From assembly GCF_963921235.1 (NCBI RefSeq), contig NC_086097.1:33234001-33298000 (forward strand): a DNA stretch of 64,000 nucleotides. The letters are read 5' to 3'. Position numbers and translations under genes: made by a program. Shown piece by piece: positions 906 to 50,214 of this stretch. The DNA is from Mobula hypostoma. Lineage: Eukaryota. Every line of letters begins with the position of its first letter. The first letter of the stretch is position 1. Below the pieces are notes generated by a model. The model made no database searches. It saw only the letters and a list, made by a program, of their open reading frames with translations, and was not told the DNA's origin.

Positions 906-2074
906 AAAAAAAGAGATTAGAATTCATAGTAAGAAGTTGGGAGGAGGAGAGGAGGAAGTACAAAGGAGTAGGTGATAGGTAAACCCAGGAGAGGGCGGGC
1001 AGTGAAGTAAAGAGCTGGGAAGTTGATGAAAGAAATTTAGGGTTGGAGAAGGGGAATCTGGTAGCAGAGGGCAGAAGGCCATGGTAGAAAGGGAAGGGGG
1101 AGGAGCACCAGAGGGAGGTGATGGACAGGTCAGGATATAAGGTGAGAGAGAGAAGTGGGAATGGGGAATGGTGAAGGAGAAGGGGGAGGCAGTTACCAGA
1201 AGTTCGAGAATTGATGTTCATTCCATCAGATTGGGGGCTACCCAGATGGAATATAAGATGTTGTTCCTCCATACTGAGTATGGCCTCATCACAGCAGTGG
1301 AGGAGGCCATGGACTGACATGTCAGAATGGGAATGAGAAGTAGAATTGAAATGTGTGGTCACCAGGAGATCCCGCTCTTTCTGGCAGACAGAGCATAGGT
1401 GGTTGGCAAAGCGGTCTCCCAATCTATGTTGGTTCTCACAGCTATACAAGAGGTCACACCGGGAGCATGAGTGCAGGAAGCAGTACCAATGCAGTTATTA
1501 ATGTAGCATAGGAAAAGTTGGTGAGTGATGCCGGTGTAGGCTTGGAACATAGACTGTAGCGTAGGCAGGCATAGCTGGGGTCAATGTGAGTTCCCCTGGC
1601 TACATCTTTTGTTTGAAGGAAGTGGAAGGAACCAAAGGAGAAATTATTGAGAGTGAGGACCGGTTCTACCAAACAGAAGAGAGTGGTGGTGGCGGGGAGC
1701 TGGTTGGGTCTGATGGCCAGAAAGAAATAGAGGCCTTTGAGACCTTCCTAATGGGGGGTGCAGGTGTATAGGGACTGGACATCTCAAGTGAAAATGAAAT
1801 GACAAGTCCAGGGAACTTGAAGTCACTGAAAAGAACAAGAGTGTGTGGAAGTGTCATGGATGTAGGTGGGAAGGGACTGAACCGTTGGGGGGGCGGGGAT
1901 GTATAACAGAGTCAAGGTATGCAGGTATAAGTTCAGTGGGTCAGTAGCAAGCAGAATCAAAAGGTCCACCTGGACAAAACAACAGGAATACTGCAGATGT
2001 TGGAAATTCAAGCAACACACATCAAAGTTGCTGGTGAACGCAGCAGGCCAGGCAGCATCTCTAGGAAGAGGTAC

Positions 2075-2110
2075 AGTCAACGTTTCAGGCCGAGACCCTT
2101 CATCAGGACT
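2075..2110 (-). ncRNA. Minimal type I hammerhead ribozyme, core intact
   Basis: AGUC CUGAUGA A GGGU CUCG GCCU GAAACGUU GACU. Confidence 0.75.
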
Positions 2111-2177
2111 AACTGAAGGAAGAGTTAGTAAGAGATTTGAAAGTGATTCAAATCTCTTACTAACTCTTCCTTCAGTT

Positions 2178-2213
2178 AGTCCTGACGAAGGGTCTTGGCC
2201 CAAAACGTCAACT
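2178..2213 (+). ncRNA. Hammerhead motif with G12>A, probably inactive
   Basis: AGUC CUGACGA A GGGU CUUG GCCC AAAACGUC AACU. Confidence 0.6.
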
Positions 2214-2398
2214 GTACCTCTTCCTAGAGATGCTGCCTGACCTGCTACGTTCACCAGCAACTTTTTATGTGTGTTCCCCCACCCCCCATCTATGGGTTTG
2301 ATAGTGAGGTTAGGGTTAGTGAGGAGAGAGTGGAGAGCAGTGTGTTCGGAAGGAGTGAGGTTAGAACTGGAGAGAGGAGTAGTAAAGTCAGTGGTTGA

Positions 2399-5830: not shown

Positions 5831-5886
5831 TGGAGTTACTAATTTGAATGAGGGAATGTTACAATACATGATGAAGTTCTTGGATA

Positions 5887-8725
5887 CATAGAAACATACA
5901 AAACCTACAGCACAATACAGGCCCTTCAGCCCACAAAGCTGTGCTGCACATGTCCTTACCTTAGAAATTACCTAGGGTTAACTATAGCCCTCTATTTTTC
6001 TAAGCTCCATGTACCTATCCAGGTGTCTCTCAAAAGACCCTATTTTATCTGCCTCCACCACCGTCACCGGCAGCCCATTCCATGCACTCACCATTCTCTG
6101 CGTAAAAAAACTTACCCCTGACATCTCCTCTGTACCTACTTCCAACCACCTTAAAACTGCCATCTAGTGCTAGCCACTTCAGCCCTGGGAAAAATCCTCT
6201 GACTATCCACATGATCAATGCCTCTCATCATCTTATACACCTCTATCAGGTCACCTCACATCCTCTGTCACTCCAAGAAGAAAAGGCCAAGGTCACTCAA
6301 CCTATTCTCATAAGGCATGCTCCCCAATCCAGGCAACATCCTTGTAAATCTCCTCTGCACCCTTTCTATGGTTTCCACATCCTTCCTGTAGTGAGACGAT
6401 CAGAACTGAGCACAGTACTCCAAGTGGGGTCTGACCAGGGTCCTATAGAGCTGCAACATTACCTCTCGGCTCCTAAACTCAATTCCACAATTGATAAAGG
6501 CCAATGCACCATATGCCGCCTTAACCACACAGCCAACCTGCGCAGCAGCTTTGAGTGTCCCAAGATCCCTCTGACCCTCCACACTGCCAAGAGTCTTACC
6601 ATTAATACTATATTCTGTCATCATATTTGACCTACCAAAATGAACCACCTCAAACTTATCTGGGTTGAACTTCATCTGCCACTTCTCAGCCCAGTTTTGC
6701 ATCCTATCAATGTCCCGCTATAACCTCTGACAGCTCTCCACACTATCCACAATACCCCCAACCTTTGTGTCATCAGCACATTTATTAACCCATCCCTCCA
6801 CTTCCTCATCCAGGCCATTTATAAAAATCACAAAGAGTAGGGGTCCCAGAACAGATGCCTGAGGCACACCACTGGTCACCAACCTTCATGCAGAATATGA
6901 CCCATCTACAACCACTCTTTACCTTATGTGGGCAAGCCAGTTCTGGATCAACAAAGCAATATCCCCTTGGAATCCTATGCCTCCTTACTTTCTCAATAAG
7001 CCTTGCATGGGGAACAGAATCAAATGCCTTGGTGAAACCCATATATACTACATCTTTTGCTCTACCTTCATCAATGTGTTTCGTCACATCCTTAAAAAAT
7101 TCAATCAGTTCATAAAGCATGACCTGCCTTTGACAAAGCCATGCTGACTATTCCTAATCATATTATGCCTCTCCAAATGTTCATAAATCCTGCCTCTCAG
7201 GATCTTCTCCATCAACTTACCGATCACTGAAGTAAGATGCACTGGACTATCTCAACTCCCTTTCTCGAATAAGGGAACAATATCCGCAACCCTCCAATCC
7301 TCCAGAACCTCTCCCATCCCCATTGATGATGCAAAAATCATCACCAGAGGCTCAGCAATCTCCTCCCTCGCCTCCCACAGTAGCCTGGGGTACATCTTGT
7401 CTGGTCCCGGTGACTTATCCAACTTGATGCTTTCCAAAAGCTCCAGCACATCCTCTTCCTTAATATCTACGTGCTCCAGCTTTTCAGTCCGCTGTAAGTC
7501 ATTCCTGCAATCGCCAAGGTCCTTTTCCTTAGTGAATACTGAAGCAAAGTATTCATTAAGTACCTTTGCTGTCTCCTCTGGTTCCATACACACTTTTCCA
7601 CTGTCACACTTGATTGGTCCTATTCTCTCACGTCTTATCCTCTTGCTCTTCACATACTTATAGAATGCCTTTGGGTTTTCCTTAATCCTGTCTGCCAAGA
7701 CCTTCTCATGGCCCTTCTGGTTCTCCTAATTTCATTCTTAAGCTCCGTCCTACTAGCGTTATAATCTTCTAGATCTCTGTCATTACCTAGTTTTTTGAAC
7801 CTTTCATAAGCTCTTCTTTTCTTCTTGACTAGATTTACAACAGCTTTGTACACCACTGTTCCTGTATCCTACCATCCTTCCCTGTCTCATTGGAACGTAC
7901 CTATGCAGAATTCCACATAAATATCCCCTGAACATTTGCCACAATTCTTCCGTACGTTTCCCTGAGAACATCTGTTTCCAGTGCTTCCAAGTTCCTGCTT
8001 GATAGCCTCATAATTCCCCTTACTCCAATTAAACGTTTTCCTAACTTGTCTGTTCCTGTCTCTCTCCAAAGCCATAGTAAAGGAGGTAGAATTGTGATCA
8101 CTATCTCCAAAATGCTCTCCCACTGAGAGACCTGACACCTGACCAGGTTCATTTCCCAATACCAGATAAAGTACTGCCTCTGCTGTTGTAGGCTTATCTA
8201 CATATTGTGTCAAGAAACCTTCCTGAACATACCTAACAAACTCCACCCCATCTAAACCCCTCACTGTAGGACGTGCCGATTGATATTTGAGAAATTAAAA
8301 TCTCCCACCACAACAACCCTGTTATTATTACACCTTTCCAGAATCTGTCTCCCTATCTGCTCCTCGATGTCCCTGTTGCTACTGGGTGGTCTATAAAAAA
8401 CACCCAGTAGAGTTATTGACTCTTTCCTCTTCCTAACTTCCACCCACAGACTCCGTTGACAATCCCTTCATGCCTTCCTCCTTTTCTGCAGCCGTGACAC
8501 TATCTCTGATCAGCAGTGCCACGCCCCCACCTCTTTTGCTTCCCTCCCTGTCCTTTCTGAAACATCTAAAGCCTGGCACTCGAAGTAAACATTCCTGTCC
8601 CTGAGCCATCCAAGTCTCTGTAATGGCCATAACATCATAGCTCCAAGTACTGATCCACGCTCTAAGCTCATCCACTTTGTTCATAGTACTTCTTGCATTA
8701 AAATAGACACATCTCAAACCATCAG
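5887..8725 (-). mobile_element. CR1 LINE covering most of ORF2 (APE endonuclease + RT), frameshifted
   Basis: CVYFNARS, AITETW, VVVGDFN, SDHN, KSPGPD, KAFDSVPH, LVRPHLEYCAQF; catagaaa tail. Confidence 0.95.
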
Positions 8726-8980
8726 ATTGATTGGTAGTCTTTATTAAAAATAATAATAACACTTCTACATCATCCTTCTGCATATTACAGTGGCTTAAAA
8801 CCAAAGTGGAGTAGTGCAGACATCCGGCCATTAGTTCCCTTAAAGATCATCATGTCAGTGCTGTTGCCTGGCTCATTATGTCACTACTATTCCTTGCTCT
8901 TTCCCCTAGCTTTCCAGGCTCTTTTCTCGCTCAATTACCATCCAATTGCCCTTTAAAGGTGTTAATGAATCTGCTGACAT

Positions 8981-13378: not shown

Positions 13379-13614
13379 AACAGCTGTTGCTTTCATATAG
13401 ACAAGAGAGTGTGCAGATGCTGAAAGTCTGGAGCAATACACAAAGGAACTGGAGGAGCTCAATGTGTCAAACAGGGAAACGGACAGATGAAGGGTCTCAG
13501 CGCAAAATATTGATTCCAAATGAGAGAAAATCTGCAGATGCTGGAAATCCGAGCAAAACACACAAAATGCTGGAGGAACTCAGCAGGCCAGGCGGCATCT
13601 ATGGAAAAGAGTAC

Positions 13615-13650
13615 AGTTGACGTTTCAGGCCGAAACCCTCCAGCAGAACT
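13615..13650 (-). ncRNA. Hammerhead variant (CUGC core), degenerate
   Basis: AGUU CUGCUGG A GGGU UUCG GCCU GAAACGUC AACU. Confidence 0.5.
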
Positions 13651-14617
13651 GGAGAAAAAAAATCTGAGGTGTAGATTTAAAAGGTGGGGGAGGAGAGAGA
13701 GGAACACAAGTTGATAGGTGGAACCTGAAGGGGGAAGGATGAAGTAAAGAGCTGGGACGTTGATTAGTGAAAGAGACAGAAGGCAATGGAAGTAAGAAAA
13801 GGGGTGGAGCTCTAGAGGGAGGCGATGGGTGGGCAAGGAGATAAGGTGAGAGAGGGAAAACGGGATGGGAAATTGTGAAGGAGAGGAGGGGTGGGGGGCA
13901 TCACCGGAAGTTTGAGAAATTAATGTCCAAGCCATCAGGCTTGAGGCTCCCAAAGCAGAATATAAGGTGTTGCTCCTCCAACCTAAGTGTGGCCTCATCA
14001 CGACAGTATCGGAATGAGAATGGGAAGTAGAATTAAAATGGATGGCCATTTGGAGATCCTGCTTTTTCTGGTGGAGCGTAGGTGCTTAGCGAAGTGGTCC
14101 CCCAAACTACGTCGAGTTTCACTGATAAACAGGAAGCCACATCAGGAGCACCGGACACAGTATATGATCTCAACAGTCTCACAGTCTCACCTGGAAGGAC
14201 TGTTTAGGGCCCTGAATGGTACTAAGTGTTACGCCTGCCCCCTACACCTCCTCCCTCGCTACTGTCATGATGAGACCACACTTAGGTTGGAGGAGCAACA
14301 CCTTATATTCCGTTTTGGTAGCCTCAAGCCTGATGGCATGAGCATCAATTTCTCAAACTTCAGTGATGCCCCCCACCCCTCTCTTCTTCACCATTTCCCA
14401 TCGCCTTTTCCCTCTCTCACTTTATCTCGTTGCCTACCCATCTCCTGCTTCTGGTGCTCCTTCCCCCTGTTCTTTCTTCCATGGCCTTTTGTCTCTTTCA
14501 CCAATCAACTTCCCAGCTCTTTACTTAATCCCGCCCCCTTCTAATTTCACCTATCACTTTGTGTTTCTCTCTCCCCACCTTCCACCTTTTAAATCTACTC
14601 CTCGGCTTTTTTTTTCC

Positions 14618-14653
14618 AGTCCTGCCGAAGGGTTTCGGCCCGAAACATCGACT
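14618..14653 (+). ncRNA. Hammerhead variant with A6C core
   Basis: AGUC CUGCCGA A GGGU UUCG GCCC GAAACAUC GACU. Confidence 0.6.
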
Positions 14654-15166
14654 GCACTCTTTTCCATAGATGCTGCCTGGCCTGCTGAGTTCCTCCAGCA
14701 TCTTGTGTGTGTTGCCCACATTTTTGATTGTCCATTCCCCTCCACAGATGCTACTTGATGTGCTGAGTTCCTCCAGCTCCTTTGTGGGTTGCACTGATTT
14801 TGTGGCCCTTGTGGTTTCAAGTTCCATTTGAACTGCTACAAAGCAGGCTATCCTATCAGAAAGCCAGGGCAAAGATCCAGTCCAGACCATGTACAGAAGT
14901 ACCAGCCCTTTCATTTCAACCATTGGTATCCGGTGGTTCAGCTGAGATTTCAGGACTTTGCTTCAGCTTTTACAGTATTTACTGTAATGTGGCCATACAA
15001 TTTTTTATTCAAATAATTGATAGGTGATAATATTCTCATGTTGTTTGGAACATAAGTTCCTCATCATGTGATTCATTGTCACTGGCTCCCTAATAAGTGC
15101 GTCAGCAAGAAATGTCCCATTCATTTCCTCTCTTCCCCCATAGCCCAAATTCACTGCTGGTTCATG

Positions 15167-18208: not shown

Positions 18209-18768
18209 TTAAAAGTCTCTATCTCTTAAAAAAAAGAGTCCAGATTATTTATTCAATTGAACTTAATTTTGTAGTTGCCCTGTAGTATGTGTGTTTGTGT
18301 GTGTAGAGCTGCATGTATGTGTAACTGAAACATAGAGGAACCTTCACAAACTCCCACAGTCCCCAATGGCCCTACGATTTCAGTCTCTGAGGCCGACATG
18401 AAAACATCTTTCAGGAGGGTGATCTCATGGAAAGCATTCAGCCCAGATGGGATACCTAGCGGAGTACTAAAGACCTTTGCTGATCAACTGGCTTGAGTGT
18501 TCACTGCTATCTTTAACCACTTGCTTCAGCAGTCTGAGGTACCTACCTGCTTCAAGCAGGCTTCAATTGTATCGGTGCCTAAGAAGAATATACAAGTATA
18601 AGAGCACTTACATCCACTGTGATGAAGTGCCTTGAGAGTTTGCTGAAACATATCAACTCCTGCCTGAGAAGCGACTTGGGTCCACTCTAATTTGCCAACT
18701 GCCACAACAGGTTCACAGCAGATGCCATTTCATTTAACCCTGGAAAATCTGGACAGCAAAGATACATA

Positions 18769-18893
18769 GCAACACACATAAAAGTTGCTGGTGAACGCAG
18801 CAGGCTAGGCAGCATCTGGCCTGCTGTGTTCACCAGCAACTTTTATGTGTGTTGCTTGAAATTCCAGCATCTGTAGATTTCCTCATGTTTGCG
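18769..18893. mobile_element. 125-bp fold-back PLE mini-insertion
   Basis: Hairpin 18769-18855 plus PLE tail; exact 14-bp TSD AGCAAAGATACATA (18755-18768, 18894-18907). Confidence 0.9.
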
Positions 18894-19184
18894 AGCAAAG
18901 ATACATACATCAGGATGCTCTTCATCGACTATAGCTTGGCATCCAATACTATAATCTCCTCAAAACTAATCAATAAGCTTCAGGACCTTAGCCTCAATAC
19001 CTCTTTGTGCAATTGGATCCTCGATTTTCTCTTGTGCAAACTTCAGTCAGTTCGGATTGGCAACAGCATCTCATCTACCAACTCCATCAGCTTAGGTGGA
19101 CCACAAGATTGTGTGCTTGGTCCTTTGCTCTACTCACTTTATACTTATGACTGTGAGGCTTAGAACAGCTGACGGTTCTTAATC

Positions 19185-23890: not shown

Positions 23891-24144
23891 GAATCTGAGA
23901 GGGACTGAGGTGCTAGATTAAGTGGTGATGCCATTAACAACATTTAAAAGGCACTTGGACAGCAACATACGTGGTTTAGAAGGACGTGGGCCAAACACAG
24001 GCTAGGCCCACTGCTGCTGTGCTGCCTATCATATGAACTAGAACTTGCGGCAACTTGCCTGGTAGGTCTTTGACTTGACAGGTGGGCCTGCAAGAGCCCC
24101 TTGCAATAAACCAGACTGTACAAGGACAGATTCAACCAGCACTT

Positions 24145-24995
24145 TCAGTCCTGGTACAGGGTCTCAGCCCCTAACACCAACAATTCCTTGGCAACACAAA
24201 TGCTGGAGGAACTCAGCAGGTCAGACAGCTTCAATGGAGGGGAATAAACAGGATTTTGGGCTAAGATATTTCATTGGGACTGGAAAGGAAAGGGGCAGAA
24301 AGGTTGTTGGGGGGGTGGGGGAAGGAATAAGGAATACAAGCTGTTAGGTTATAGGTGAGACAAGGTGAGCAGGAAAGTGGGTGGGTGGGAGAGAGGGAGT
24401 GAAGTAAGAAGCTGGAAGGTGATAGGTAGAAGAGGTAAACAACTGAAGAAGAAGGAATCTAAGGATTGGAAAATGGACTGGGAGAAACAGAAGGAGGTGG
24501 GGAACTAGAGGGAAGAGGTGGGCAGGTGAGGAGAAGAGAAGGGGTAAGAGGGGAAGCAAAATGGGGAATGGAAAAGAGGGAGGTGGAGAAATGTTCAGAA
24601 GTTAGAGAAACTGATGTTGAAAGCTACCCAGACAGACTATGAAGTGTTGCTCCTCCAACCTGTGAGAGGCCTCATCATGGCAGGAGAGGAGGCCATGGAC
24701 CAACTCGTCAGAATGAGAATGGAAAGCACAATTAAGAAGGGTGTGGCCACCGGGAAACCCTTCCTGTAATGGCGGGTGGAGCAAAGGTGCTCAATGAAGT
24801 CTGTGTTGGGTCTCACTGATGTAGAAGAGACTGCACCAGGAGCATCAGATACAGTAGATGACCCCAACATACTTTTAGGTGAAGTGCTTGGGGATTGACA
24901 ATTGTTTGACAATTCCTTTGCCCCACAGATGCATTTCGACTCGACGAGTTCCTTCAGCAGATAGTGTCTTCTTCCAGATTCCAGTGCCAGAAGTC
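24145..24995. mobile_element. Old PLE terminal repeat (+) split by a PLE 3' end (-, 24190-24885)
   Basis: Degenerate hammerhead at 24145-24180; ACAATTCCTT repeated at 24180-24189 and 24909-24918; RLEEQHFI on the minus strand. Confidence 0.75.
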
Positions 24996-25682
24996 TCCTA
25001 CGTCAGCATGTGCTGTGTGCTCTGCTGGAGGTAGTGGTCTAGGAGACTGCAGCCCCAGTTACATTCACACTCCTCTTCAGAGGATGCAGAATGAACAGCA
25101 GGATCACCTCGCACAGTGGCACAGTGAGCTCAGCTGCTGCCTCATAGCTCCAGAGACCCTGCCACGGTGCTGTTTGTATGCTCTCCTTTTGTGATTGTGT
25201 GGCTTCTCTCCACATTCCACAGATATGTGCGTTGTTATGTCAATTGTCCAGTATATATTGCTTCTCGTGTATGTGAATGCGCTGATCGAATCTGGGGGAA
25301 GGTGATGTAAATGTGGGGAGAATGAAATGGGATTAGCATAGTATAAGTGTCATTAAGTGTTTATGGTTAGCACAGACTCCGACTAAGAAACTGTTGCTCG
25401 ATCTCCCTCTTTTACTCTATGACTTTGGTAGCAGGATGAAAAGTAGCTGTCAATTTGCCTGGCACATACATGCCAAACGCTATGTGTGGGAGCTGATTGT
25501 AGTTACAGTGCTAATCACACTCAAATCCATTGGCAGGCGGTATTTATTGGCGCCTTGCTGCAGTACCTCAGCCCACGGCATGCACTGGTGGGGGGGGGGG
25601 TGGGGTGAGGTCTTACTGCTGGAATTCATGATTTATTGCCTTGCCCACAAGGCTGTGGATCTGTGGTTTAACTGTGATACTT

Positions 25683-26310
25683 GCCTCCTCCCTCCTTTCA
25701 CCTCCTTCCCCACCATGCCCTCTTGTAGCATTACCTTCTCCCCACTCCCCCCCTCACATTCTCTGTTCATTGCCTTTCCCTGCTCCTCCCTCCCCTTACC
25801 TTCTCCCCATTCCCTCCCCTCCTCACCTCTTCTTCCACTCTGCCTTCCCCACCTCACCCCCTCCTTCACTTCCCTCCTCACCCACTCCCTCCTGACCACT
25901 CCTCAGTTCCAGCCCTTCCCTCCCTACTCCCCTCCCTTCTGCTCCTTGTCCACTCCTTGCCCTATCCCTCTTTGCCTCCTCCTTCCCTTCCTCGTTGCCT
26001 CCCTCCCGTCCCCCCCCCCATGTGATCATCCCTTGTAGGTCGAATGGCCTGTACTATATTGTATTCTTCTATGATCAGCCCTTCTAGTCCAGGGAATGGA
26101 TCAGTTTTAATTTGGCATCATCCTGCAGTGTATCGGTGCTCCTTACTCCCACACCTTATTCCTGTCTGTATCCCATGATACCTACCTCACCCCATCCCTA
26201 CTTTCCTCCTTTCACATTCCACCCTGCCTCTTTTGTTTCTTCCCACCACCCTCTCGGCCCCCGACCCCTCTCTGCCTCCTCTTTCTGCTCTGCCCCAGGT
26301 CTTCCCCTCT
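25683..26310. repeat. CT-rich low-complexity tracts
   Basis: Polypyrimidine composition at 25683-26030 and 26140-26310. Confidence 0.8.
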
Positions 26311-27139
26311 CCTTGCTGTGTACTGAATATTTTCAGGGTCTTTTTCTCCTGCATGTCTGTCCCAGAGCAGCGCTTGTATTCACCGCTCTCAGGAGTGAAA
26401 CCTTATGGAGCAGGATGGGGCAAATAGTGAGATTGTTGCTGAGTGACAGTCCAATTGCCCAGACAGTTCTGTAAATCTTTAATCTCAATGAGCTGAAGAT
26501 ATGTGACCTATTAGATGTCACTCTGCAGTACCTTCGCCCCCAGCTCCTATCCAGCTGGGTTAAGAAGCCATCTTGGTGAGGCATTAGTGAGGGAAGTGTC
26601 TGCAGACTGTGATCTGCCGCTGCCGTGTTTGACTCCAGCACTGGCTGCCAAAGCAAACACTGATCCTCCTTTGACGGGGTTTGATGGAATGTGAGCAATG
26701 TAGAGCAGTTATTAGATAATGGGGCTGGAGCAGGCCATGGTCATTGACGCCAGTGGAATGCACATTGTGTGCCAGTGGGGAAGGCACGCCTTTCAAATGC
26801 ATCATGACCCTGGGCATTTCTGGTGCAGATTGTGTCCTGGGCTGTAGTTTTGATGCAGATGGTGCTTATGGCCCCAGTACACTGCCCCCCCCCACCTTCC
26901 CCAACAGCCCACAAGGGTCGGTGCTTCTCTGGCTGCCATTCTCCAGTTCTGTGAAACCTGATAGTGAGCTGATCTCATGCAGGAACCCAACCTGTAAATC
27001 AAACGTGTACACAGTGGGAGCCTTAGAGCAACAGACGCGCATTGGAGCCCAGCCAGTGTGGCCAGTCTTGGACTCATACAGGCATAGAAATATAGAGCAC
27101 TACAGCACAGAAGCAGGCCCTTTAACCTCTTTTTTGCTT

Positions 27140-27570
27140 GAAGTGGGGACACTGAAAGGATGCAGAGCTGGGCTGGGAAATGGCAGATGGAGATCAACCT
27201 GCAAAATTGCAAAGTGATTCATTCTGGAAGACAGAGAATGGGGGTAATGGCAGGGTTCTTAGAAGTGTGGCAGAATCGAGGGATCTTGGAATGTCCTGCC
27301 GAGGTGATGATTGAGGCAAATGCATTAGGGGCATTTTTAGAACTCTTAGCTAGGCATATGGATGATTGATAAATGGAGGGCTCTGTGGGAGGGAAGGGTA
27401 AGATTAATCATAGAGGAGGTGAAAAGGTCGGCACAACATCATAAGCCAAAGGGCCTGTACTGTCTATGCTCAGACCTTCTAGTCCATGGAAGGGATGAGT
27501 TTTAGTTTGGCATCACGCTTGGCAAAGACATTGTGGGCCGAAGGGCCTGTTCCTGTACTGTACTGTGTTT
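27140..27570 (+). mobile_element. Deleted CR1 3' fragments
   Basis: WAGKWQMEIN...CKVIH; gggccgaagggcctgt 3' UTR. Confidence 0.75.
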
Positions 27571-28085
27571 TAGTGTATAGGAATGGGAGGCACCCTCCAC
27601 GACTTGGAGTGGCTTTTGTCTGAAGACTTCAAGTTAAAATGTCAAAGTTTCAACTTCCTCCTAGGTGCTGACAACTGCTGAGTGTGCACCCATTCTGGGG
27701 CACATTATCCTGTTGGAGAAGCAATACTCAGGTGTATGACATTGTCAGGAGGGCTAGTACTTGACCAAGCATCTTACTGTTAGAGGGATGGTTCTGGGAG
27801 AGCATCACCCTGTCAGACTGGTATTGCATCAACAATGCTGCACTGCAGAGAGCATCCTACAGGCAATGCCACACTTTGGGGTTCTGTATGTTGAAGGCTT
27901 TGTCTTTAGTATGGGGCTGTTAAACCAGGCTCTTGATTAATCCCTCAAGTGGGCAAACAATCTGAGGACAGTACTACAACACAAACTAGGTCTTCACACT
28001 AAATAGCGGAAGAACTCAGCAGCTCAGGTAGCAGTGATGTGTAATAGAGCAATTCCTATAGTCTGCTCAGCAGAAGCTGAATGAT

Positions 28086-36371: not shown

Positions 36372-36511
36372 GACTAGTCCTGACGAAGGGTCTCGGCCTG
36401 AAACGTCGACTGCACCTCTTCCTGGAGATGCTGCCTGGCCTGCCGCGTTCACCAGCAACTTTGATGTGTGTTGCTTGAATTTCCAGCATCTGCAGAATTC
36501 CTGTTGTTTGC
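36372..36511 (+). mobile_element. ~140-bp PLE terminal module starting at the hammerhead
   Basis: Near-identical to 62758-62895; inserted in the Tc1 left end. Confidence 0.9.
36376..36411 (+). ncRNA. Minimal type I hammerhead ribozyme, intact
   Basis: AGUC CUGACGA A GGGU CUCG GCCU GAAACGUC GACU: stem I AGUC/GACU, 4-bp stem II, palindromic ACGU, GUC triplet. Confidence 0.85.
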
Positions 36512-36580
36512 ATTTAAAACACAAGATAATTGATTGCATAAGTATTCACCACCCTTTAATAATACTCACTGGTGCAGCCA

Positions 36581-37150
36581 CGAGGAAATCTGCAGATGCT
36601 GGAAATTCAAACAACATACACAAAAAATGCTGGTGAACGCAGCAGGCCAGGCAGCATCTATAGGAAGAGGTACAGTCGACATTTCGGGCCGGGACCCTTT
36701 GTCAGGACTAATTGAAAGAAGAGATAGTAAGAGATTTAAAAGTGGGAGGGGGAGGGGGAGATCTGAAATGATAGGAGATGACAGGAGGGGGGGGTGGATC
36801 TAAGAGCTGGAGAAGGGAGAGCATCATGGGACGGGAAGCCTGGGGAGAAAGAGAAGGGGGGAGGGGAGCCCGGAGGGTGGAGAGCAGACAAGAAGTTATA
36901 GTGAGAGGGACAGAGGGAGAAAAAAGAGAGAGAGAAAAAGGGGGAAATAAAAAATATATTAAAAATATATTAAATAAATAAGGGATGGGGTGTGAAGGGA
37001 AGAAGGGGCATTAACGGAAGTTAGAAAAGTCAATATTCATGCCATCAGGGTGGAGGCTACCGAGACGGAATATAAGGTGTTGTTCCTCCAACCTGAGTGT
37101 GGCTTCATTTTGACAGTAGAGGAAGCCGTGGATGGACATATCAGAATGGA
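36581..37150 (-). mobile_element. PLE 3' end with hammerhead (36674-36709, G8>A)
   Basis: 11-bp TSD TGGTGCAGCCA (36570-36580, 37151-37161); GIY-YIG C-terminal remnant. Confidence 0.9.
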
Positions 37151-37313: not shown

Positions 37314-38325
37314 ATGAAGACAAAATAACACTCCAAGCAACTCCGCAAAAAGACTATAGAAAAGCACATATCAGGAGATGGATGCAAGAAAATTTCCAAG
37401 TCAGTGAATATCTCTTGGAATACAGTTGTCAATCATCAAGAAATGGAAAGAGCATAGCACAGCTGTAAATCTGCCTAGAGCAGACTGTCCTCAAAAACTG
37501 AGTGACCGTGCAAGAAGAAGACTGATGAGTGAAGCCACCAAGAGACCTATGACAACTCTGGAGGAGTTACAAGCTTCAATGGCTGAGATGAGCAAAGCTG
37601 TGTGTACAACAGCTGTTGTTGTCCGGGTGCTTCACCAGTTGCAACTCTATGGGAGAATGGCAAAGAGAAAGCCACTGTTGAAAAAAACACATGAATTTTG
37701 GCTAGAGTTTGTCAGAAGCATGTGGGAGGCTCTGAAGTCAGTTGGAAGAATGTTCTATTGTCTGATGAAACCAAAATTGAGCTTTTTGGCCATCAGACTA
37801 ATGCTATGTTTGGCAGAAGCCAAACACCACGCATCATCAAAAACACACCATCCCTACCGTGAAGCATGGTGGTGGCTGCATCATGCTCTGGGGATGCTTC
37901 ACTGCTGAAGGCCCTGGAAGGCTTGTGAAGGTAGAGGGTAAAATGAATGCAACAAAATACAGACGAATTCTGGAGGAAAACCTGATGCAGTCTGCAAGAG
38001 AATTGCAACTTGGGAGATTTGTTTCCAGCAAGACAATGACCCCAAGCATAAAGCCAAAGCTACATGGGAATGACTTTAAAATAACCAAATTAACGTCCTG
38101 GAGAGGCCAAATCAGAGTCCAGACTTCAATCCAATTGAGAATTTGTGGCTGGATTTGAAAAGGGCTGTTCACTCATGATCACCATGCAATCTGACAGAGC
38201 TTGAGCAGTTTTGTAAAGAAGAATGGGGAAAAATTGCAGTGTCCAGATGTGCAAAGCTGATAGAGACCTATCCACACAGACTCAAGGCTATAACTGCTGC
38301 CAAAAGTGCATCTATTAAATACTGA
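37314..38325 (+). pseudogene. Tc1 DD34E transposase, frameshifted
   Basis: [58 protein letters not shown]. Confidence 0.95.
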
Positions 38326-39489: not shown

Positions 39490-40989
39490 GAAAAAGTTAC
39501 CCTTCAGGACCCTTTTAAATCTTTCTGCTCTCAGCTTAAACTTTTGCCCCGTAATTTTGGACTCCCGTACCTTGGGGAAAAGACTGTTAACATCAATCTA
39601 TGTATTTTTCTCATTAATTTAATCATTTTTATAAGGTCACCCCTCTTCCTCTTATGTTCCAAGGAATAAAGACCTGGGCTAGCCAACCTCTCCCTATATC
39701 TGAGGCCCTCTAATCCTGGCAACATTCTCGTATAACTTTTCTGCACTCTTTCCAGTTTAAAAAACATTTTTCCTGTAACAGAATGACCAAAGCTGTTCAC
39801 AATACTCCATGTGCAGTCCCACCAATAACGTACACAACTGTATCCAACATAATAACCCAACTCTTATACTCTGTGCCCTGACTAATGAAGGCCAGTGTGC
39901 AAAATGTTTTTTTCACCACCCTGCCTACCTGCAAAGCCACTCTTAAATGAAATATGCATTTGTACTCCTAGGACCCACTGTTCCATTACAGCTCACTAAG
40001 TACTGTACCATTCATAATACAAGTGCTGCGCTGGATGGACTTTCAGAATCAGAATCAGGTTTATTATCACCGGCATGTGAAGTGAAATTTGTTAACTTAG
40101 TAGCAGCAGTTCAGTGCAATATATAGTCTAGCAGAGAAAAAAAAAATAACAATAATAAATAAACAAGTAATTCAATTACAGTATACAGTACACATATTGA
40201 ATAGATTAAAAAACATGCAAAATCAAAAATACTGTATATTAAAAAAAGTGAGGTAGTGTCCAAAAATTCGATGTCTATTCAGGAATTAGGTGGCAGAGGG
40301 GAAGAAGCTGTTCCTGAATCGCTGAGTGTGTGCCTTCAGGCTTCTGTACCTCCTACCTGACGGTAACAGTGAGAAAAGGGCATGCCCTGGGTGCTGGACA
40401 TCCTTAATAATGGACGCTGCCTTGCTAAGACATCACTCCCTGAGGATGTCCTGAATACTTTGTAGGCTAGTGCCCAAAATGGAGCTGACTAGATCTACAA
40501 CCTTTTGCAGCTACTTTCAGACTTGTGCAGTAGCCCCTCCATACCAGACAGTGATGCAGCCTGTCAGAATGCTGCCCATGGTACAACTGTAGAAGTTCAT
40601 GAGTGTATTTGTTGGCATGCCAAATCTCTTCAAATTCCTAATAAAGTATAGCCATTGTTTTGCCTTCGTTATAACTACATCGATATGTTGGGACCAGGTT
40701 AGATCCTCAGAGATCTTGACACCCAGGAACTTGAAACTGCTCACGCTCTCCACTTCTGAACCCTCTATGAGGATTGGTATGTGTTCCTTCGTCTTACCCT
40801 TCCTGAAGTCCACAATCAGCTCATTGGTCTTACTGACGTTGAGTGCCAGGTTGTTGCTGCGGCACCATTCCACTAGTTGGCATATCTCACTCAAACACGA
40901 GAAAATCTGCAGATGCTGGAAATTCAAGCAACACACACAAAATGCTGGTGGAACGCTGCAGGCAAGGCAGCATCTATAGGAAGAAGTAC

Positions 40990-41025
40990 AGTCAAAGTTT
41001 CGGGCCGACACCTTTCGTCAGGACT
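40990..41025 (-). ncRNA. Hammerhead motif, partly decayed
   Basis: AGUC CUGACGA A AGGU GUCG GCCC GAAACUUU GACU. Confidence 0.6.
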
Positions 41026-41983
41026 AACTGAAAGAAGAGATAGTAAGAGATTTGAAAGTGGGAGGGGAGGGGGAGATCCGAAATGATAGGAGAAGACAGG
41101 AGAGGGAGGGAAGAAGGTCAGAGCTGGAAAGTTGATTGGCAAAAGAGATACAGAGTTGGAGAAGGGGGAGGATCATGGGACAGGTGGCCTAAGGAGAAAG
41201 AAAGGGAGAGGGGAGCCCAGAGGAAGATGGAGAGTAGGCAGGGAGTGATTGTGAGAGGGACAGAGAGAGGAAAAAAAGGGGGGGAATAAAAATCAATAAG
41301 GGATGGGGTAAGAAGGGGAGGAGGGGCATTAACGGAAGTTAGAGAAATCAATGTTCACACCATCAGGTTGGAGGCTACCCAGATGGAATATAAGGTGTTG
41401 TTCCTCCAACCTGAGTGTGGCTTCATCTTGACAGTAGAGGAGGCCATGGACTGACATATCAGAATGGGAATGGGACATGGAATTAAAATGTGTGGCCACT
41501 GGGAGATTCTGCTTTCTCTGGCGGACAGAGCGTAGGTGTTCAGCGAAACTGTCTCCCAGTCTGCGTCGGGTCTCACCAATATATAGAAACCCACATTGGA
41601 CGCAGTATATCACACCAGCCGACTCACAGGTGAAGTGTTGCCTCACCTGGAAGGACTGTCTGGGGCCCTGAATGGTGGTGAGGGAGGAAGTGTAAGGGCA
41701 TGTGTAGCACTTGTTCTGCTTACAAGGATAAGTGCCAGGAGGGAGATCAGTGGGGAGGGATCGGGGGGACGAATGAACAAGGAAGTCGGATAGGGAGCGA
41801 TCCCTGCAGAAAGCAGAAAGAGTGGGGGAGGAAAGATGTGCTTGGTGGTGGGATCCCGTTGGAGGTGGTGGAAGTTACGGAGAATTATATGTTGGACTCG
41901 GAGGCTGATGGGGTGGTAGGTGAGGACATGGAGAACCCTATCCCAAGTGGGGTGGCGGGAGAATGGGATGAGAGCAGATGTGT

Positions 41984-43870
41984 GACTTCACCACACCTTG
42001 TTGCAATTCCAACCTCACTCCTTCCGAACGCTCTGCTCTCTACTCCCTCTGCACCAATCCTAACCTTACTATAAAACCTGCTGATAAGGGGGGTGCTGTT
42101 GTTGTCTGGCGTACTGACCTCTACCTTGCCGAGGCACAGTGACAGCTTGCTGGTACCTCCTCTTATTTACCATTCAATCATGACCCCACTAAGAAGCACC
42201 AGGCTATTGTCTCCCACACCATCACCAACCTTATCAGCTCTGGGGATCTCCCATCCACTGCCACCAACCTCATAGTTCCCACACCTCACACTTCCCGTTT
42301 CTACCTCCTACCCACGATCCACAAACCTGCCTGTCCAGGTAGACACGTTGTCTCAGCTTGCTCCTGCCCCACCGAACTCATTTCTGCATACCTCAACACT
42401 GTTTTATCCCCCCTTGTTCAATTCCTTCCCACCTATGTTCGTGACACTTCTCACACTCTGAATTTTTTCGATGATTTTAAGGTCCCTGGCTCCCACCGCC
42501 TTATTTTCACCATGGATGTCCAGTCCCTATATACCTCCATCCCCCACCAGGAAGATCTCAAAGCTCTCCGCTTTTTGGATTCCAGACCTAACCAGTTCCC
42601 CTCTACCACCACTGTCCTCCATCTAGCGGAATTGGTCCTTACTCTTAATAATTTTTCCTTTGGCTCCTCCCACTTCCTCCAAACTAAAGGTGTAGCTATG
42701 GGCACCTTGTATGGGTCCTAGCTATGCCTGCCTTTTTGTTGGGTTTGTGGAACAATCTATGTTCCAAACCTATTCTGGTATCTGTCCCCCACTTTTCCTT
42801 CGCTACATCGACGATTGCATTGGTGCTGCTTCCTGCACGCATGTTGAGCTCGTTGACATCATTAACTTTGCCTCCAACTTTCACCCTGCCCTCAAGTTTA
42901 CCTGGTCCATTTCCGACACCTCCCTCCCCTTTCTTGATTTTTCTGTCTCTATTTCTGGAGACAGCTTATCTACTGATGTCTACTATAAGCCTCCTGACTC
43001 TCACAGCTACCTGGACTATTCCTCTTCTCACCCTGTCTCTTGCAAAAATGCCATCCCCTTTTCGCAATTCCTCCATCTCTGCTGCATCTGCTCTCAGGAT
43101 GAGGCTTTTCATTCCAGGGCGAGGGAGATGTCCTCCTTTTTTAAAGAAAGGGGCTTCCCTTCCTCCACAATCAACTCTGCTCTCAAACGCACCTCTCCCA
43201 TTTCACGCACATCTGCTTTCACCCCATCCTCCCACCACCCCACTTGGGATAGGGTTCCCCTTGTCCTTACCGACCACCCCACCAGCCTCCAGGTCCAACA
43301 TATAGTTCTCCGTAACTTCCACCCTCCAACGGGATCCCACCACCAAGCACATCTTTCCCTCCCCCCCTTTCTGCTTTCCGCAGGGATTGCTCCCTACACG
43401 ACTCCCTTGTCCATTCATTCCCCCCCGCCATCCCTTCCCACCAATCTCCCTCCCAGCACTTAACCTGTTAAGTGGAACAAGTGCTACTCCTGCCCTTACA
43501 CTTCCTCCCTCATCACCATTCAGGGCCCCAAACAGTCCTTCCAGGTGAGCGACACTTCACCTGTGAGTCAGCTGGTGTGATATACTGTGTCCAGTGCGCC
43601 CGGTGTGGCCTTCTATATATTGGTGAGACTCGACACAGACTGGGAGAGCGTTTTGCTGAACACCTGCTCTCTATCCACCAGAGAAAGCAGGATCTCCCAG
43701 TGGCCACACATTTTAATTCCACGTCCCATTCCCATTCTGATATGTCAGTCCACGGCCTCCTCTACTGTCAAGATGAAGCCACACTCAGGTTGGAGGAACA
43801 ACACCTTATATTCCATCTGGGTAGCCTTCAACCTGATGGCATGAACATTGATTTCTCTAACTTCCGTTAA
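41984..43870 (+). pseudogene. PLE reverse transcriptase + GIY-YIG endonuclease, frameshifted
   Basis: KPADKGG, FYLLP.IHK, MDVQSLYTSIPH, GVAMG, RYIDD, LPFLD, VIYCVQCARCGLLYIGET, RFAEH. Confidence 0.95.
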
Positions 43871-44168
43871 TGCCCCTCCTCCCCTTCTCACCCCATTCCT
43901 TATTTATTTTTATTTCCCCCCCTTTTATTTTCCTTCTCTCTCTGTCCCTCTCACAGTTACTCCTTCCTGCTCTCCATCTTCCTCTAGGCTCCCCTCCCCC
44001 TTTCTTTCTCCGTAGGCCACCTGTCCCATGATCCTCCCCCTTCTCCAATTCTGTATCCCTTTTACCAATCAACTTTCCAGCTCTTAGCTTCTTCCCTCCC
44101 CCTCCTGTCATTTCGGATCTCCCCCTCCCCTCCCACTTTAAAATCTTATACTATCTCTTCTTTCAGTT

Positions 44169-44204
44169 AGTCCTGACGAAGGGTCTTGGCCCGAAACATT
44201 GACT
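44169..44204 (+). ncRNA. Minimal type I hammerhead ribozyme
   Basis: AGUC CUGACGA A GGGU CUUG GCCC GAAACAUU GACU. Confidence 0.75.
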
Positions 44205-44787
44205 GTACTTCTTCCTACAGATGCTGCCTGGCCTGCTGCTTTCCACCAGCATTTTGTGTGTGTTGCTGGCATATCTCACTCCTGTATGCCCCCTCGTCAC
44301 CACCTGAGATTCTACCAACAATGGTTGTATCGTCAACAAATTTATAGATGGTATTTGAGCCATGCCTAGCCACACAGTCATCTGTATATAAAGAGTAAAG
44401 CAGTGGGCTAAGCACACATCCCTGAGGTGTTGATTGTCAGTAAGGAGGATATGTTATCACCAATCCGCACAGATTGTGGTCTTCTGGTTAGGAAATGCAC
44501 CACCAAAATGTACCACCTCAAATTTAACTGTATTGAAATCCATTTGCCACTCCTCAGTCCACTTCTCTAACTAATCAGGATACCCCTGTAATCTACAATA
44601 ACCTTCTTTACTATCAGCAACACCTTCTAATTTTGTGGCATCTGCAAACTTACTGATCAAGTCTTGTGCATTTGCAAAATCCCATTTATATAAATAATGA
44701 ATAGTAAAGGTCCTGCGGCACATCACTAGTTACCAGCCCCTGCTTCCTACCTTTTAGATGAGTGTAGATGCTGTTGCTTATTTGCTC

Positions 44788-45627
44788 TGCCCATGTGATC
44801 ACTCCTGAGAGACCGCGTTAGAACTGGAGCTGCAGCTCGATGACCTTCGTCTGGCCAGGGAGAGTGAAGAGGTGATAGAGAGGAGCTATAGGCAGGTAGT
44901 CACCCCGGGACCACAGGAGACAGATAAGTGGGTAACAGTCAGGAGAGGGAAGGGCAGGAGTCAGATGCTGGAGAGTACCCCTGTGGCTGTCCCCCTTAAC
45001 AATAAGAGCTCCTGCTTGAGTACTGTTGGGACGGCTTACCTGGGGGAAGCAATAGTAGTCATGTCTCTGGCACAGGGTCTGGCCCTGTGGCTCAGAAGGG
45101 TAGGAAAAGGAAGAGGATGGCAGCAGTGATAGGGGACTCTATAAGTTAGGGGGTCAGATAGGCAATTCTGTGGATGCAAGAAAGAAACGCGGATGGTAGT
45201 TTGCCTCCCAGGTGCCAGGGTCCAGGATGTTTCTGATTGCGTCCACGATACCTTGATGTGGGAAGGAGAACAGCCAGAGATCGTGGTACATATTGGTACC
45301 AATGCCATAGGTAGGAAAAGGGAGGAGGTCCTGAAAACAGACTACAGGGAGTTAGGAAAGAAGCTGAGAAGCAGGACCTCAAAGGTAGTAATCTCAGGAT
45401 TACTGCCTATGCCACGTAACAGTGAGTATAGGAATAGAATGAGGCGGAGGATAAATGCATGGCTGAGGGATTGGAGCAGGGGGCAGGGATTCAGATTTCT
45501 GGATCATTGGGACATCTTCTGGGGCAGGTGTGACCTGTACAAAGTGGACGGGTTGCACTTGAATCTGAGGGGCACCAATATCCTGGCGGGAAAGTTTGCT
45601 AAGGCTATTGGGGAGATTTTAAACTAG
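44788..45627 (+). pseudogene. CR1 ORF1 with SGNH/GDSL esterase domain
   Basis: VIGDS, CLPGA, VVHIGTN and DGLHL blocks. Confidence 0.85.
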
Positions 45628-48600
45628 AATTGCTGGGGGGTGGGAATGGAACTGAAGTGACGGAGGAAAGGGAGGTTGGCTCACAAATAGAGAAAGCTTG
45701 GAGACAGTGCGAAAGGTAGGATAGACAGGTGACAGAGAAAGGACGCACTCAGACCGATGGTTTGAGATGTACCTATTTTAATGCGAGGAGTATTATGAAT
45801 AAAGTGGATGAGCTTAGAGCGTGGATCAGCACTTGGATCTATCATATTGTGGCCATTACAGAGACTTAGATGGTGCAGGGGCAGGAATGGTTACTTCGAG
45901 TGCCAGGCTTTAGATGTTCCAGAAAGGATAGGGAGGGAGGCAAAAGAGGTGGGGGTGTGGCACTGTTGATCAAAGATAATGTCACGGCTGCAGAAAAGGA
46001 GGAAGGCATGAAGGGGTTGTCTATGGAGTCTCTGTGGGTGGAAGTTAGGAATAGGAAGGGGTCAATATCTCTACTGGATGATCTTTATAGACCACCCAAT
46101 AGTAATAGGGACATTGGGGAGCAGATAGGAAGACAGATTGTGCAAAGGTATAATAATAACAGGGTTGTTGTGTTGGGAGATTTTTATTTCCCACCACAAC
46201 AACCCTGATTGGCATCTCCCTGGACAAAGGGGTTTAGATGGGGTGGAGTTTGTTAGGTGTGTTCTTGACACAGTATGTAGATGAGCCTACACGAGGAGAG
46301 GCTGTACTTGATCTAGTATTGGGAAATGAACCTGGTCAGGTGTCAGGTCTTTCAGTGGGAGAACATTTTGGAGATAGTGATCACAATTCTATTTCCTTTA
46401 TCATAGCATTGGAGAGGGATAGGAACAGACAAGTTAGGGAAACATTTAAATGGAGTAAGGGGAAATGTGAGGCTATCAGGCAGGAACTTGGAAGCATAGA
46501 TTGGAAACATATTCTCAGGGAAACGTACGGAAGAAATGTGGCAAATGTTCAGGGGATATTTGCGTGGTTTCTGAGTAGGTACGTTCCAGTGAGACATGGA
46601 AAGAATGGTAGGGTTCAAGATCCATGGTGTACAAAGGCTGTTGTAAATCTAATCAAGAAGAAAAGAAGAGCTTATGAAAAGTTCAAAAAACTAGGTAATG
46701 ATAGAGATCTAGAAGATTATAAGTCTAGCAGGAAGGAGCTTAAGAATGAAATTACGAGAGCCAGAAGGGGCCATGAGAAGGCCTTGGCGGACAGGATTAA
46801 GGAAAACCCCAAGGCATTCTACAAGTATGTGAAGAGCAAGAGGATAAGATGTGAGAGAATTGGACAAATCAAGTGTGACAGTAGAATAGTGTGTGTGGAA
46901 CCGGAGGAAATAGCAGAGGAACTTAATGAATACTTTGCTTCAGTATTCACTATGGAAAAGGATTTTGGCGATTGTAGGGATGACTGAAAAGCTTGAGCAT
47001 GTAGATATTAAGGAAGAGGGTGTGCTGGAGCTTTTTGAAAGCATCAAGTTGGATAAGTCGCTGGGATCGAACGGGATGTACCCCAGGCTACTGTGGGAAG
47101 CAAGGGAGGAGATTGCTGAGCCTCTGGCAATGATCTTTGCATCATCAATGAGAACGGGAGAGGTTCTGTTGCAGATGTTGTTCCCTTATTCAAGAAAGGG
47201 AGTAGGTACAGCCCAGGAAATTATATGTCAGTGAGTCTTACTTCAGTGGTTGGTAAGTTGATGGAGAAGATCCTGAGAGGCAAGAATTATGAACTTTTGG
47301 AGAGGCATAATATGATTAGGAATAGTCAGCATGGCTTTGTCAAAGGCAGGTCGTGCCTTACAAGACTGATTGAATTTTTTGAAGATGTGACCAAACACAT
47401 TGATGAAGGTAGAGCCGTAGATGTAGCGTATATGGATTTCAGCAAGGCATTTGATATGGTACCCCATGCAAGGCTTATTGAGAAAGTAAGGAGGCATGAG
47501 ATCCAAGGGGACATTGCATTGTGGATCCAGAACTGGCTTGCCCACAGAAGGCAAAGAGTGGTTGTAGACAGGTCATATTCTGCATGGAGGCCAGTGACCA
47601 ATGGTGTGCCTCAGGGATCTGTTCTGGGACCCCTACTCTTTGTGATTTTTATATGTCTATGACCTGGATGAGGAAGTGGAGGGATGGGTTAGTAAATGTG
47701 CTGATGACACAAAGGTTGGGGGTGTTGTGGATAGTGTGGAGGGCTGTCAGAGGTTACAGCGGGACATTGATAGGATGCAAGATTGGACTGAGACGTGGCA
47801 GATGGAGTTCAACCCAGATGTGTGTGGTGGTTCATTTTGGTAGGTCAAATATGATGGCAGAATATAGCATTAATGGTAAGACTCTTGGCAATGTGGAGGA
47901 TCAGAGGGATCTTGGGGTTTGAGTCCACAGAACACTCAAAGCTGCTACACAGGTTGACTCTGTGGTTAAGAAGACATACGGTGCATTGGCCTTCATCAAT
48001 CATGGCACTGAGTTTAAGAGCTGAGAGGTAATGTTGCAGCTATATAGGACCATGGTGAGACCCCACTTGGATTACTGTGCTCAGTTCTGTTTGCCTCACT
48101 ACAGGAAGGACGTGGAAACCATAGAAAGGGTGCAGAGGAGATTTACAAGGATGTTGCCTGGATTGGGAAGTATGCCTTATGAGAATAGGTAGAGTGAACT
48201 CGGCCTTTTCTCCTTGGAGCGACGGAGGATGAGAGGTGACCTGATAGAGGTGTACAAGATAATGAGAGGCATTGATCGTGTGGATAGTCAGAGGCTTTTC
48301 CCCAGGGCTAAAGTGGCTAGCACGAGGAGGCATAGTTTTAAGGTGCTTGGAAGCAGGTACAGAGGAGACGCCAGGGGTAAGTTTATTACACAGAGAGTGG
48401 TGAGTATGTAGAATGGGCTGCCGGCGGCAGAGGTGGAAGCGATGGTGTCTTTTAAGGGACTCCTGGATGGCTACATGGAGCTTAGAAAAATAGAGGGCTA
48501 TGGATAAAGCCTAGGTAGTTCTAAGGTAGGGACATGTTCGGCACAGCTTTGTGGGCCGAAGGGCCTGTATTGTGCTGCAGGTTTTCTATGTTTCTATGTT
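44788..48600 (+). mobile_element. Near-full-length CR1 LINE (ORF1 + ORF2), disrupted
   Basis: ORF1 coiled-coil and esterase, then APE and RT motifs; ttctatgtttctatgtt tail. Same family as 5887-8725 and 19185-20850. Confidence 0.95.
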
Positions 48601-49419: not shown

Positions 49420-49620
49420 TACACAATGCGCTAGAGGAGCTCAGCAGGTCAGGCAGCGTCTGTGGATGGGAATAAACAGTAGATGTTTTGGGCAAAGACC
49501 CTTAATTCTGAGGAAGAGTCTCAGCCCAAAACGTCAGCTGTTTATTCCCATCCATAGATGCTGCCTGACCTGCTGAGCTCCTCCAGCATTTTGTGTATAT
49601 TGCTGTAGATTTCCAGCAAT
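49420..49620. mobile_element. Fold-back PLE mini-element turning within the hammerhead
   Basis: ~49429-49503 is the reverse complement of ~49516-49588; degenerate hammerhead halves at the centre. Confidence 0.8.
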
Positions 49621-49803: not shown

Positions 49804-49987
49804 AACACAAAATAATCTTCAGATGCTGGGGTCAAAGCAACACTCACAACACGCTGGAGGAGCTCAGCAGGTCGGGCAGCATCAGTGGAAAAGATTGATC
49901 GACGTTTCGGGCCAGAACCCTTCGTCAGTCCTGATCTTTTCCACTGGTGCTGCCCGACCTGCTGAGTTCCTCCAGCGTGTTGTGAGT
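49804..49987. mobile_element. 184-bp fold-back PLE mini-element with a hammerhead core in its loop
   Basis: Arms 49841-49895 and 49933-49988; exact 13-bp TSD GTGGTATATTAGG (49791-49803, 49988-50000). Confidence 0.9.
49897..49932 (-). ncRNA. Hammerhead core, with the stem I 5' strand rearranged
   Basis: agga CUGACGA A GGGU UCUG GCCC GAAACGUC gauc. Confidence 0.65.
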
Positions 49988-50214
49988 GTGGTATATTAGG
50001 GATGGGTTGTGCATTTCAAAGTACAGCTCAGCCTTGGCCTGGTCACTGTTGATTCAGCTGTGTAACTGGCCTTACTTCTACTTTGTTGATTGATTCTTCA
50101 TGGATGCAAGAAGCTTTGGTCTAAGCTCCAGTTTACAATCCCCCCCCCCCCCACTAAATATATGGCCACATTACCTACCCTCTAACTTTATACAAGGAGG
50201 AGGACTAAGAATTA

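Follow-up and report, generated by a model that had tools for sequence, protein, structure and literature searches.

A 263-bp hairpin with a hammerhead motif on each strand in Mobula hypostoma: very probably an inverted, 5'-truncated insertion of a Penelope-like element

A stretch of 64 kb of the Mobula hypostoma genome, referred to here as the window, contains a long inverted repeat in which each arm carries a hammerhead ribozyme motif, one on either strand. The layout raises the question of whether the locus is an RNA unit with a function or a mobility of its own, or a product of the integration of a retroelement. The first-pass annotation had described a near-perfect palindrome of about 260 bp with a 5-nt loop, and this description holds. 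The palindrome measures 263 bp (2013-2275); its arms (2013/2014-2141 and 2147-2275) are complementary at 119 of 128 aligned pairs, with one additional 1-nt gap, the innermost 39 bp are perfect, and the loop at 2142-2146 reads AGTGA. The start assigned to the element, position 1977, has to be divided, as the palindrome proper begins at 2013 and the 36 nt before it form a tail to which nothing in the right arm corresponds. Computed folding bears out the earlier statement that a transcript of either strand would form a rod, with -222.5 kcal/mol for the plus-strand RNA (z -27.5) and -242.8 kcal/mol for the minus-strand RNA (z -30.4), and none of 200 shuffled sequences is as stable in either case. 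The 16 Rfam matches obtained at E values up to 1 include no hammerhead family. Those over the palindrome are to microRNA-precursor models and one sRNA model, all of them under the gathering score, and matches to microRNA models are found because any long hairpin gives them. The features of the locus, together with the other pairs of the same kind in the window, are collected in the table.

Table. Features of the palindrome and its flanks, and head-to-head pairs of pseudo-LTR ends in the 64-kb window (PLE, Penelope-like element).
Feature	Position	Strand	Basis or remark
Left flank: older broken PLE copy with part of the RT, endonuclease and a 3' end of its own, whose hammerhead (862-906) has decayed	784-1976	minus	Sequence alignment
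PLE tail, 36 nt (3' extension of the pseudo-LTR), left arm only	1977-2012	minus	Left-arm match to 62726-62893 (168 nt at 93%) spans the tail; right arm ends before it; tail score 58 left versus 10 right
Left arm: 5'-truncated pseudo-LTR end of a putative Neptune-type PLE	2013-2145	sense on minus	BLAST, 86% to the 3' end of the 41983-44275 copy and 93% to 62726-62893; contigs
Minimal type I hammerhead motif, core boxes whole, triplet GUU, G-U at 10.1-11.1	about 2074-2111	minus	Position-by-position parse
Loop and head-to-head junction	2142-2146		Left arm includes 2142-2145; base 2146 is assigned to neither arm
Right arm: second 5'-truncated pseudo-LTR end, without tail	2147-2275	sense on plus	85-88% to the same two reference copies
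Minimal type I hammerhead motif, G12 to A (2202), first stem I pair broken (2210), predicted inactive	2177-2214	plus	Position-by-position parse
Right flank: upstream continuation of the older PLE RT (DKG region)	2276-2390	minus	DNA alignment to the 41983-42900 copy
Head-to-head pair (the palindrome)	2013-2275		Truncation points offset by 3-4 nt; tail on left arm only
Head-to-head pair	13517-14716		Asymmetric centre
Head-to-head pair, short, new relative to the first-pass annotation	18768-18901		Target duplication of 13-14 bp
Head-to-head pair, the largest	40893-44266		Target duplication of 15 bp; right arm with most of the RT and endonuclease (frameshifts, stops); left arm about 1.1 kb; asymmetric centre
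Head-to-head pair, short, new relative to the first-pass annotation	49421-49618
Head-to-head pair, short, new relative to the first-pass annotation	49816-49989		Target duplication of 13 bp; small extra fold-back and skip at the centre
Head-to-head pair	58345-59390		A LINE fragment of about 550 bp interrupts the right arm

The arms of the palindrome can be traced to a single source. In BLAST searches both map to the 3' end (44134-44275) of a coding element at 41983-44275 with 85-86% identity, and a closer copy of both is found at 62726-62893 with 88-93% identity. The coding element has RT frames followed downstream by a GIY-YIG frame (Pfam E value 5e-4, below the curated cutoff). Pfam gives no match for its two RT pieces. 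A protein search with one RT piece returned 201 hits, of which the best 120 include many with PF00078 and some with PF01541, and the best named RT homologues among the matches listed belong to a stingray and to sharks. A C-x4-C-x2-C motif is present in the stretch that links RT to endonuclease in the open reading frame at 41329-41874 as well as in the homologues P0010, P0014 and P0019. Craig et al. (2021, PMC8557442) describe a zinc-finger-like cysteine motif in this linker as a feature of Neptune and Nematis PLEs, and the parent is accordingly labelled here, from the linker motif alone, as a putative Neptune-type (or Nematis) PLE. By sequence, the arms belong to the end repeat of an element that codes for an RT with a C-terminal GIY-YIG endonuclease, and they are identified as two 5'-truncated pseudo-LTR ends of a very abundant PLE joined head to head. 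That PLEs often integrate as inverted, 5'-truncated pairs had been noted at the outset as established, and such a pair accounts for the whole anatomy, with both arms falling on one PLE 3' end.

The 3' ends of both arms point outward and the truncated 5' ends meet in the loop. Contigs of the family were taken from public runs (four of the 23 listed runs, from three organisms, at 85% likeness; the best run contains 44% of the sampled words). These contigs follow the left arm to 2145 and then continue into ordinary upstream UTR, and loose ends occur at 2145 in all four runs (92 in X1, 124 and 45 in X5, 16 in X10 and 45 in X9). The junction thus consists of the left arm to 2145, one base, and the right arm from 2147, and no microhomology is seen at this point.

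Judged from the alignments, the palindrome is inserted in the RT gene of an older PLE copy lying on the minus strand. The insert splits the host RT, such that tblastn places residues 177-212 of P0010 to the right of it and residues 294-319 to the left. Alignment to a related copy indicates that some 230-240 nt of the host PLE are missing at the insertion point, and a duplication search found no target-site duplication at the 2013-2275 insert, so that the ends of the insert may have changed later; the loss itself may date from the insertion or from a later time. Elsewhere in this host copy another stretch of about 750 nt is missing, and that gap contains no insert. PLE inserts without target duplication have been described, the duplication being optional (PMC3846280).

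Taken together with the census and the decay described below, the locus very probably arose in a single integration event of a Neptune-type PLE that is very abundant, and is now decaying without selection and carrying its hammerheads as passengers. The RT-GIY-YIG protein would cut both strands of the target, and each 3'-OH would prime reverse transcription on pseudo-LTR RNA, with one start beyond the tail and the other before it. Both cDNAs would break off shortly beyond the hammerhead, after 130-170 nt, and would then be joined end to end. A purified PLE protein is able to cut both target strands and to extend them, with reverse transcription starting at two sites that bound the tail (PMC11167929). 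The same work predicts that the PLE protein is a dimer and reports that hammerhead cleavage is not needed for insertion in vitro (Frangieh et al. 2024, PMC11167929). An inverted, 5'-truncated copy next to the 5' end and a tail of 30-40 bp at one end are described as typical of PLEs (Craig et al. 2021, PMC8557442; PMC3846280). The present insert has the inverted, 5'-truncated copy in head-to-head orientation, a 36-nt tail at one end and no target duplication. It thus resembles the PLE insertions described in PMC8557442, PMC3846280 and PMC11167929, in which the inverted head-to-head copy is accompanied by a tail of 30-40 nt at one end, a palindrome at the junction, and a target duplication that may be present or absent. 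It differs from them in that both copies are cut to 130-170 nt, so that the insert is one hairpin with no open reading frame, in its cartilaginous-fish host, and in the absence of about 235 nt of the target. The hammerhead comes along with every insert that exceeds about 100 nt, and inversion places one on each strand; for this reason the hammerheads are best regarded as passengers. A transcript across the locus would form a long hairpin in which the motif is shut, and the locus would have no unit of its own to replicate.

The window offers a number of comparable insertions. A BLAST census gives 29 merged hits to pseudo-LTR ends, 15 of which fall in seven head-to-head pairs. All seven junctions differ, with offsets between the truncation points ranging from 3-4 nt to 1225 nt. 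The tail is confined to one arm in every pair, clearly in four (scores of 38-58 versus 10-18) and more weakly in three (20-26 versus 8-16), and target duplications of 13-15 bp flank three of the seven. The first-pass annotation had stated that the three larger inverted insertions (13517-14716, 40893-44266 and 58345-59390) share the layout of the palindrome. All three are indeed head to head, but the centres of the first two are asymmetric and a LINE fragment splits the third. This fragment, the 3' part of a LINE at 58751-59300, lies in the right arm just past the hammerhead motif. Two long LINE copies are also present at 45145-47920 and 5881-8846, in opposite orientation and about 90% alike, with an ORF1 of the SGNH/GDSL esterase type and an RVT_1 reverse transcriptase, and a Tc1/mariner-type transposase fragment (PF01498) is found at 37408-37908. 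The region 24000-28000 is richer in GC (about 0.50) and has few PLE ends. At 36375-36744 and 692-951 PLE ends lie tail to tail with their 3' ends facing, which is the reverse of the usual head-to-head layout; these neighbours are probably separate insertions. Copies at 36375, 49502, 49928, 61199 and 692 start at the hammerhead's 5' edge (stem I) and not where it would be cleaved; in the public contigs, joints and loose ends cluster at the same edge (2109-2110 and 2178-2180). Such starts may reflect a truncation hot spot, a natural RNA start, or merely the point at which older subfamilies diverge.

The differences between the two arms have the appearance of mutational decay. Six of the ten fall in the 12 CpG columns among 128 (Fisher p 3e-5), at two CpGs each arm has mutated on its own side, and none of the ten is a compensatory change. 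Outside CpG positions, of the eight copies compared, the one closest to each arm is the other arm, with 3 differences in 116 positions (the next copies have 5 and 6), as expected if both came from one event. On the minus-strand RNA a G-U pair remains after seven of the eight transitions (p 0.07), a weak hint that the hairpin of one strand is favoured, and the other six pairs in the window lack such a bias (57 to 48, p 0.44). Selection for a minus-strand hairpin was considered and rejected on these two counts. The CpG pattern is that of neutral decay, and the palindrome appears from it to be decaying without selection.

Some of these observations sit less easily with the main reading. The two truncation points are no more than 3-4 nt apart, and this fits a fold-back as well as two independent cDNAs; the seven-of-eight G-U bias is a weak hint of a different kind, and certain other junction forms reach a high depth in the public contigs (see below). 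A variant of the main reading, which can be entertained tentatively, holds that a single cDNA primed itself from its 3' end and that the resulting hairpin was resolved by the endonuclease about 36 nt short. For PLE palindromes of the head-to-head type, Arkhipova et al. (2013, PMC3846280) proposed self-priming, and the close truncation points, the 39 perfect central base pairs and the mutual proximity of the arms would all follow from it. The lack of microhomology at the junction speaks against this variant, as does a difference between the arms (2023 versus 2261-2265) that corresponds to two variants of the family and gives a weak, single-site hint of two templates. In addition, of the six uninterrupted pairs, four have the arm that is longer at the centre on the tailed side and two have the shorter one there, which indicates no fixed order; a rule that the tailed arm is the longer arm was rejected on the same count.

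A minimal type I hammerhead has the core boxes CUGANGA and GAAA and a cleavage triplet of the form NUH. Both boxes are kept in the minus-strand motif of the palindrome, which has the triplet GUU and a G-U at 10.1-11.1; this G-U also occurs in two well-kept copies and may therefore be a subfamily trait. On the plus strand GAAA is absent, with AAAA in its place, so that G12 has become A, and a C-A mismatch occupies the first pair of stem I. G12 is the general base of the hammerhead (PMC6155905). The hammerheads that had been reported on the minus strand of the left arm and the plus strand of the right arm are thus present as motifs at those places, but both are degenerate, through the loss of G12 in one and the GUU triplet in the other. 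Neither is predicted to be intact, and the plus-strand copy is predicted from its core to be inactive. Across the four runs the letter at 2079 is the GUC-type one in 73-95% of summed contig depth, a measure that should not be read as copy number, and the family letter G at 2202 makes up 65-68% of this depth in all four. Relative to the family the changes at the palindrome therefore look like private decay and not the norm.

The family motif is of the minimal type I: stem II is preceded by an extra base, and the 15.2-16.2 pair is palindromic. In this it agrees with the hammerheads described for metazoan PLEs (PMC4209133), which have the extra base between 9 and 10.1, the palindromic 15.2-16.2 pair without helix III, and a site in the pseudo-LTR. 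According to Cervera and De la Pena (2014, PMC4209133), the minimal form cleaves weakly and needs a second copy, in a dimer, to act, and dual minimal motifs on opposite strands occur 100-700 bp apart. In the palindrome, by contrast, helix II has 3 bp, the motifs are about 65 nt apart, and both are altered, one of them in a catalytic base. Forcing the hammerhead fold costs a computed 54.9 kcal/mol relative to the rod on the plus strand and 56.8 kcal/mol on the minus strand. The head-to-head arrangement means that, on either strand, transcription reaches the antisense arm ahead of the ribozyme, which leaves no co-transcriptional window for the ribozyme to fold. The folding model thus points to a motif locked shut by the rod, a lock and not a switch, and the idea of a self-sequestering ribozyme switch is not sustained, as a rod that is more stable by about 55 kcal/mol and an antisense arm that comes first would keep it always off.

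If the hairpin were read through by a host transcript, it could be a source of small RNAs directed against the parent family. By its modelled structure, the 129-bp stem at 93% pairing would be a good Dicer-type substrate, and in transformed D. melanogaster siRNAs match inverted Penelope copies (PMC3681739). Such a role is nevertheless unlikely: no promoter was identified, nor a host gene among the listed ORFs, the arm differences represent CpG decay with no compensation, and the presence of at least six more hairpins in the 64 kb means that no single locus is special.

More far-reaching proposals treat the palindrome as a unit that moves, and they turn on how often particular junctions recur. 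The 21-nt word across the junction of the palindrome occurs once in the window. The public contigs yield 514 joint rows, and all 15 shown connect a place in the left arm to a place in the right arm other than the junction of the palindrome; these rows can be read as palindromes with other centres, which fits junctions made anew at each insertion. A few joints are found at high depth in single contigs. The joint 2096-2169, which has a 6-nt microhomology, reaches 321.8 in X5 and 40.1 in X1, the joint 2097-2166 reaches 248.8 in X5, and the joint 2032-2187 reaches 353.7 in X10; 2108-2166 also belongs to the group at 200-350, as compared with 2.7-16.5 for the listed ordinary pieces, although the short sides of the high-depth joints, at 21-26 nt, are in a range flagged as unreliable. 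The simplest reading of these forms is recurrence at microhomology, and remobilisation of some palindromes could give them as well. Metagenome contigs give 0 matches to the exact junction, but the family hammerhead motif also has 0 matches there and in viral contigs, so that these collections lack the organism and the absence is uninformative. None of the listed runs is on record as RNA. One contig of X10, a run guessed to be RNA, is identical to 2538-2649, which shows no expression.

It is conceivable, though very doubtful, that a subset of the short PLE palindromes of cartilaginous fishes are MITE-like retro-units that are transcribed whole and re-inserted by the PLE protein by means of the tail, and whose hairpins serve as the main small-RNA brake on the family. 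High-depth junctions such as 2096 to 2169 would then mark units of this kind, and the present locus would be an aged member or a precursor. Were this the case, the palindromes would constitute a new class of non-autonomous retroelement and a genome-wide hairpin-RNA brake on vertebrate transposition. In the literature searched, no title or abstract concerns PLE palindromes of sharks or other chondrichthyans, which is not proof of their absence from print.

Still less probable is the proposal of a non-autonomous palindromic unit, comparable to a retrozyme or viroid, that is transcribed, processed by its hammerheads and re-inserted whole by PLE protein. The palindrome still has the cis end, consisting of pseudo-LTR and tail, on which PLE proteins can act in trans (PMC3846280), and the high contig depth of some other junction forms could be counted in its favour. 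With one hammerhead per strand, however, the unit lacks the two sites between which it could be excised, and neither motif has a partner on its own strand with which to form a dimer; G12 is lost on the plus strand, and on both strands the antisense arm precedes the ribozyme. The claim of a remobilised unit, which would predict shared junctions, runs against the seven different junctions of the 64-kb window and the many further forms in the public contigs. Animal non-LTR retrozymes (Cervera and De la Pena 2020, PMC7229834; Li et al. 2026, 10.64898/2026.07.22.740005) are likewise non-coding, 150-400 nt long, equipped with a type I hammerhead and related to PLEs. As described in these sources, they are direct tandem repeats in which two or more same-strand hammerheads release circles, whereas in the palindrome the two copies are inverted and each strand has a single motif, and the next minus-strand motif is 1.2 kb away, decayed, and part of the older host copy. 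Hammerhead viroids and HDV-like circles (reviewed in PMC7761336) share the length of about 300 nt, the high degree of pairing and a ribozyme motif in each polarity. Viroids are circular RNA replicons cut from multimers, in contrast to a stretch of chromosomal DNA with retroelement ends, and the two-polarity layout of the palindrome arises because one sequence is inverted. Here the plus-strand core is broken, both motifs are sequestered, and the PLE ends lie in chromosomal DNA inside another PLE. The viroid- or retrozyme-like unit that had been suggested fails on these grounds, as there are no tandem same-strand hammerheads to give a circle and one core is, as far as its letters tell, dead.

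An assembly or amplification artefact (a fold-back chimera) is hardly credible: no aligned contig spans the whole stretch, but the arms differ at ten positions and have each acquired CpG-type changes independently, only one side has the tail, and the flanks, unmirrored and collinear, are the two halves of one older PLE, where a chimera would give identical arms and mirrored flanks.

The palindrome, read as a one-off PLE integration product, most likely adds a further case to the inverted PLE insertions already known and is as such of little importance in itself. In the PLE literature consulted, the choice between two-ended priming and a fold-back step is still undecided. Several head-to-head pairs per 64 kb amount to a large natural record of PLE integration, in which the one-tail rule, the offsets of the junctions and the differences between arms could separate the two.
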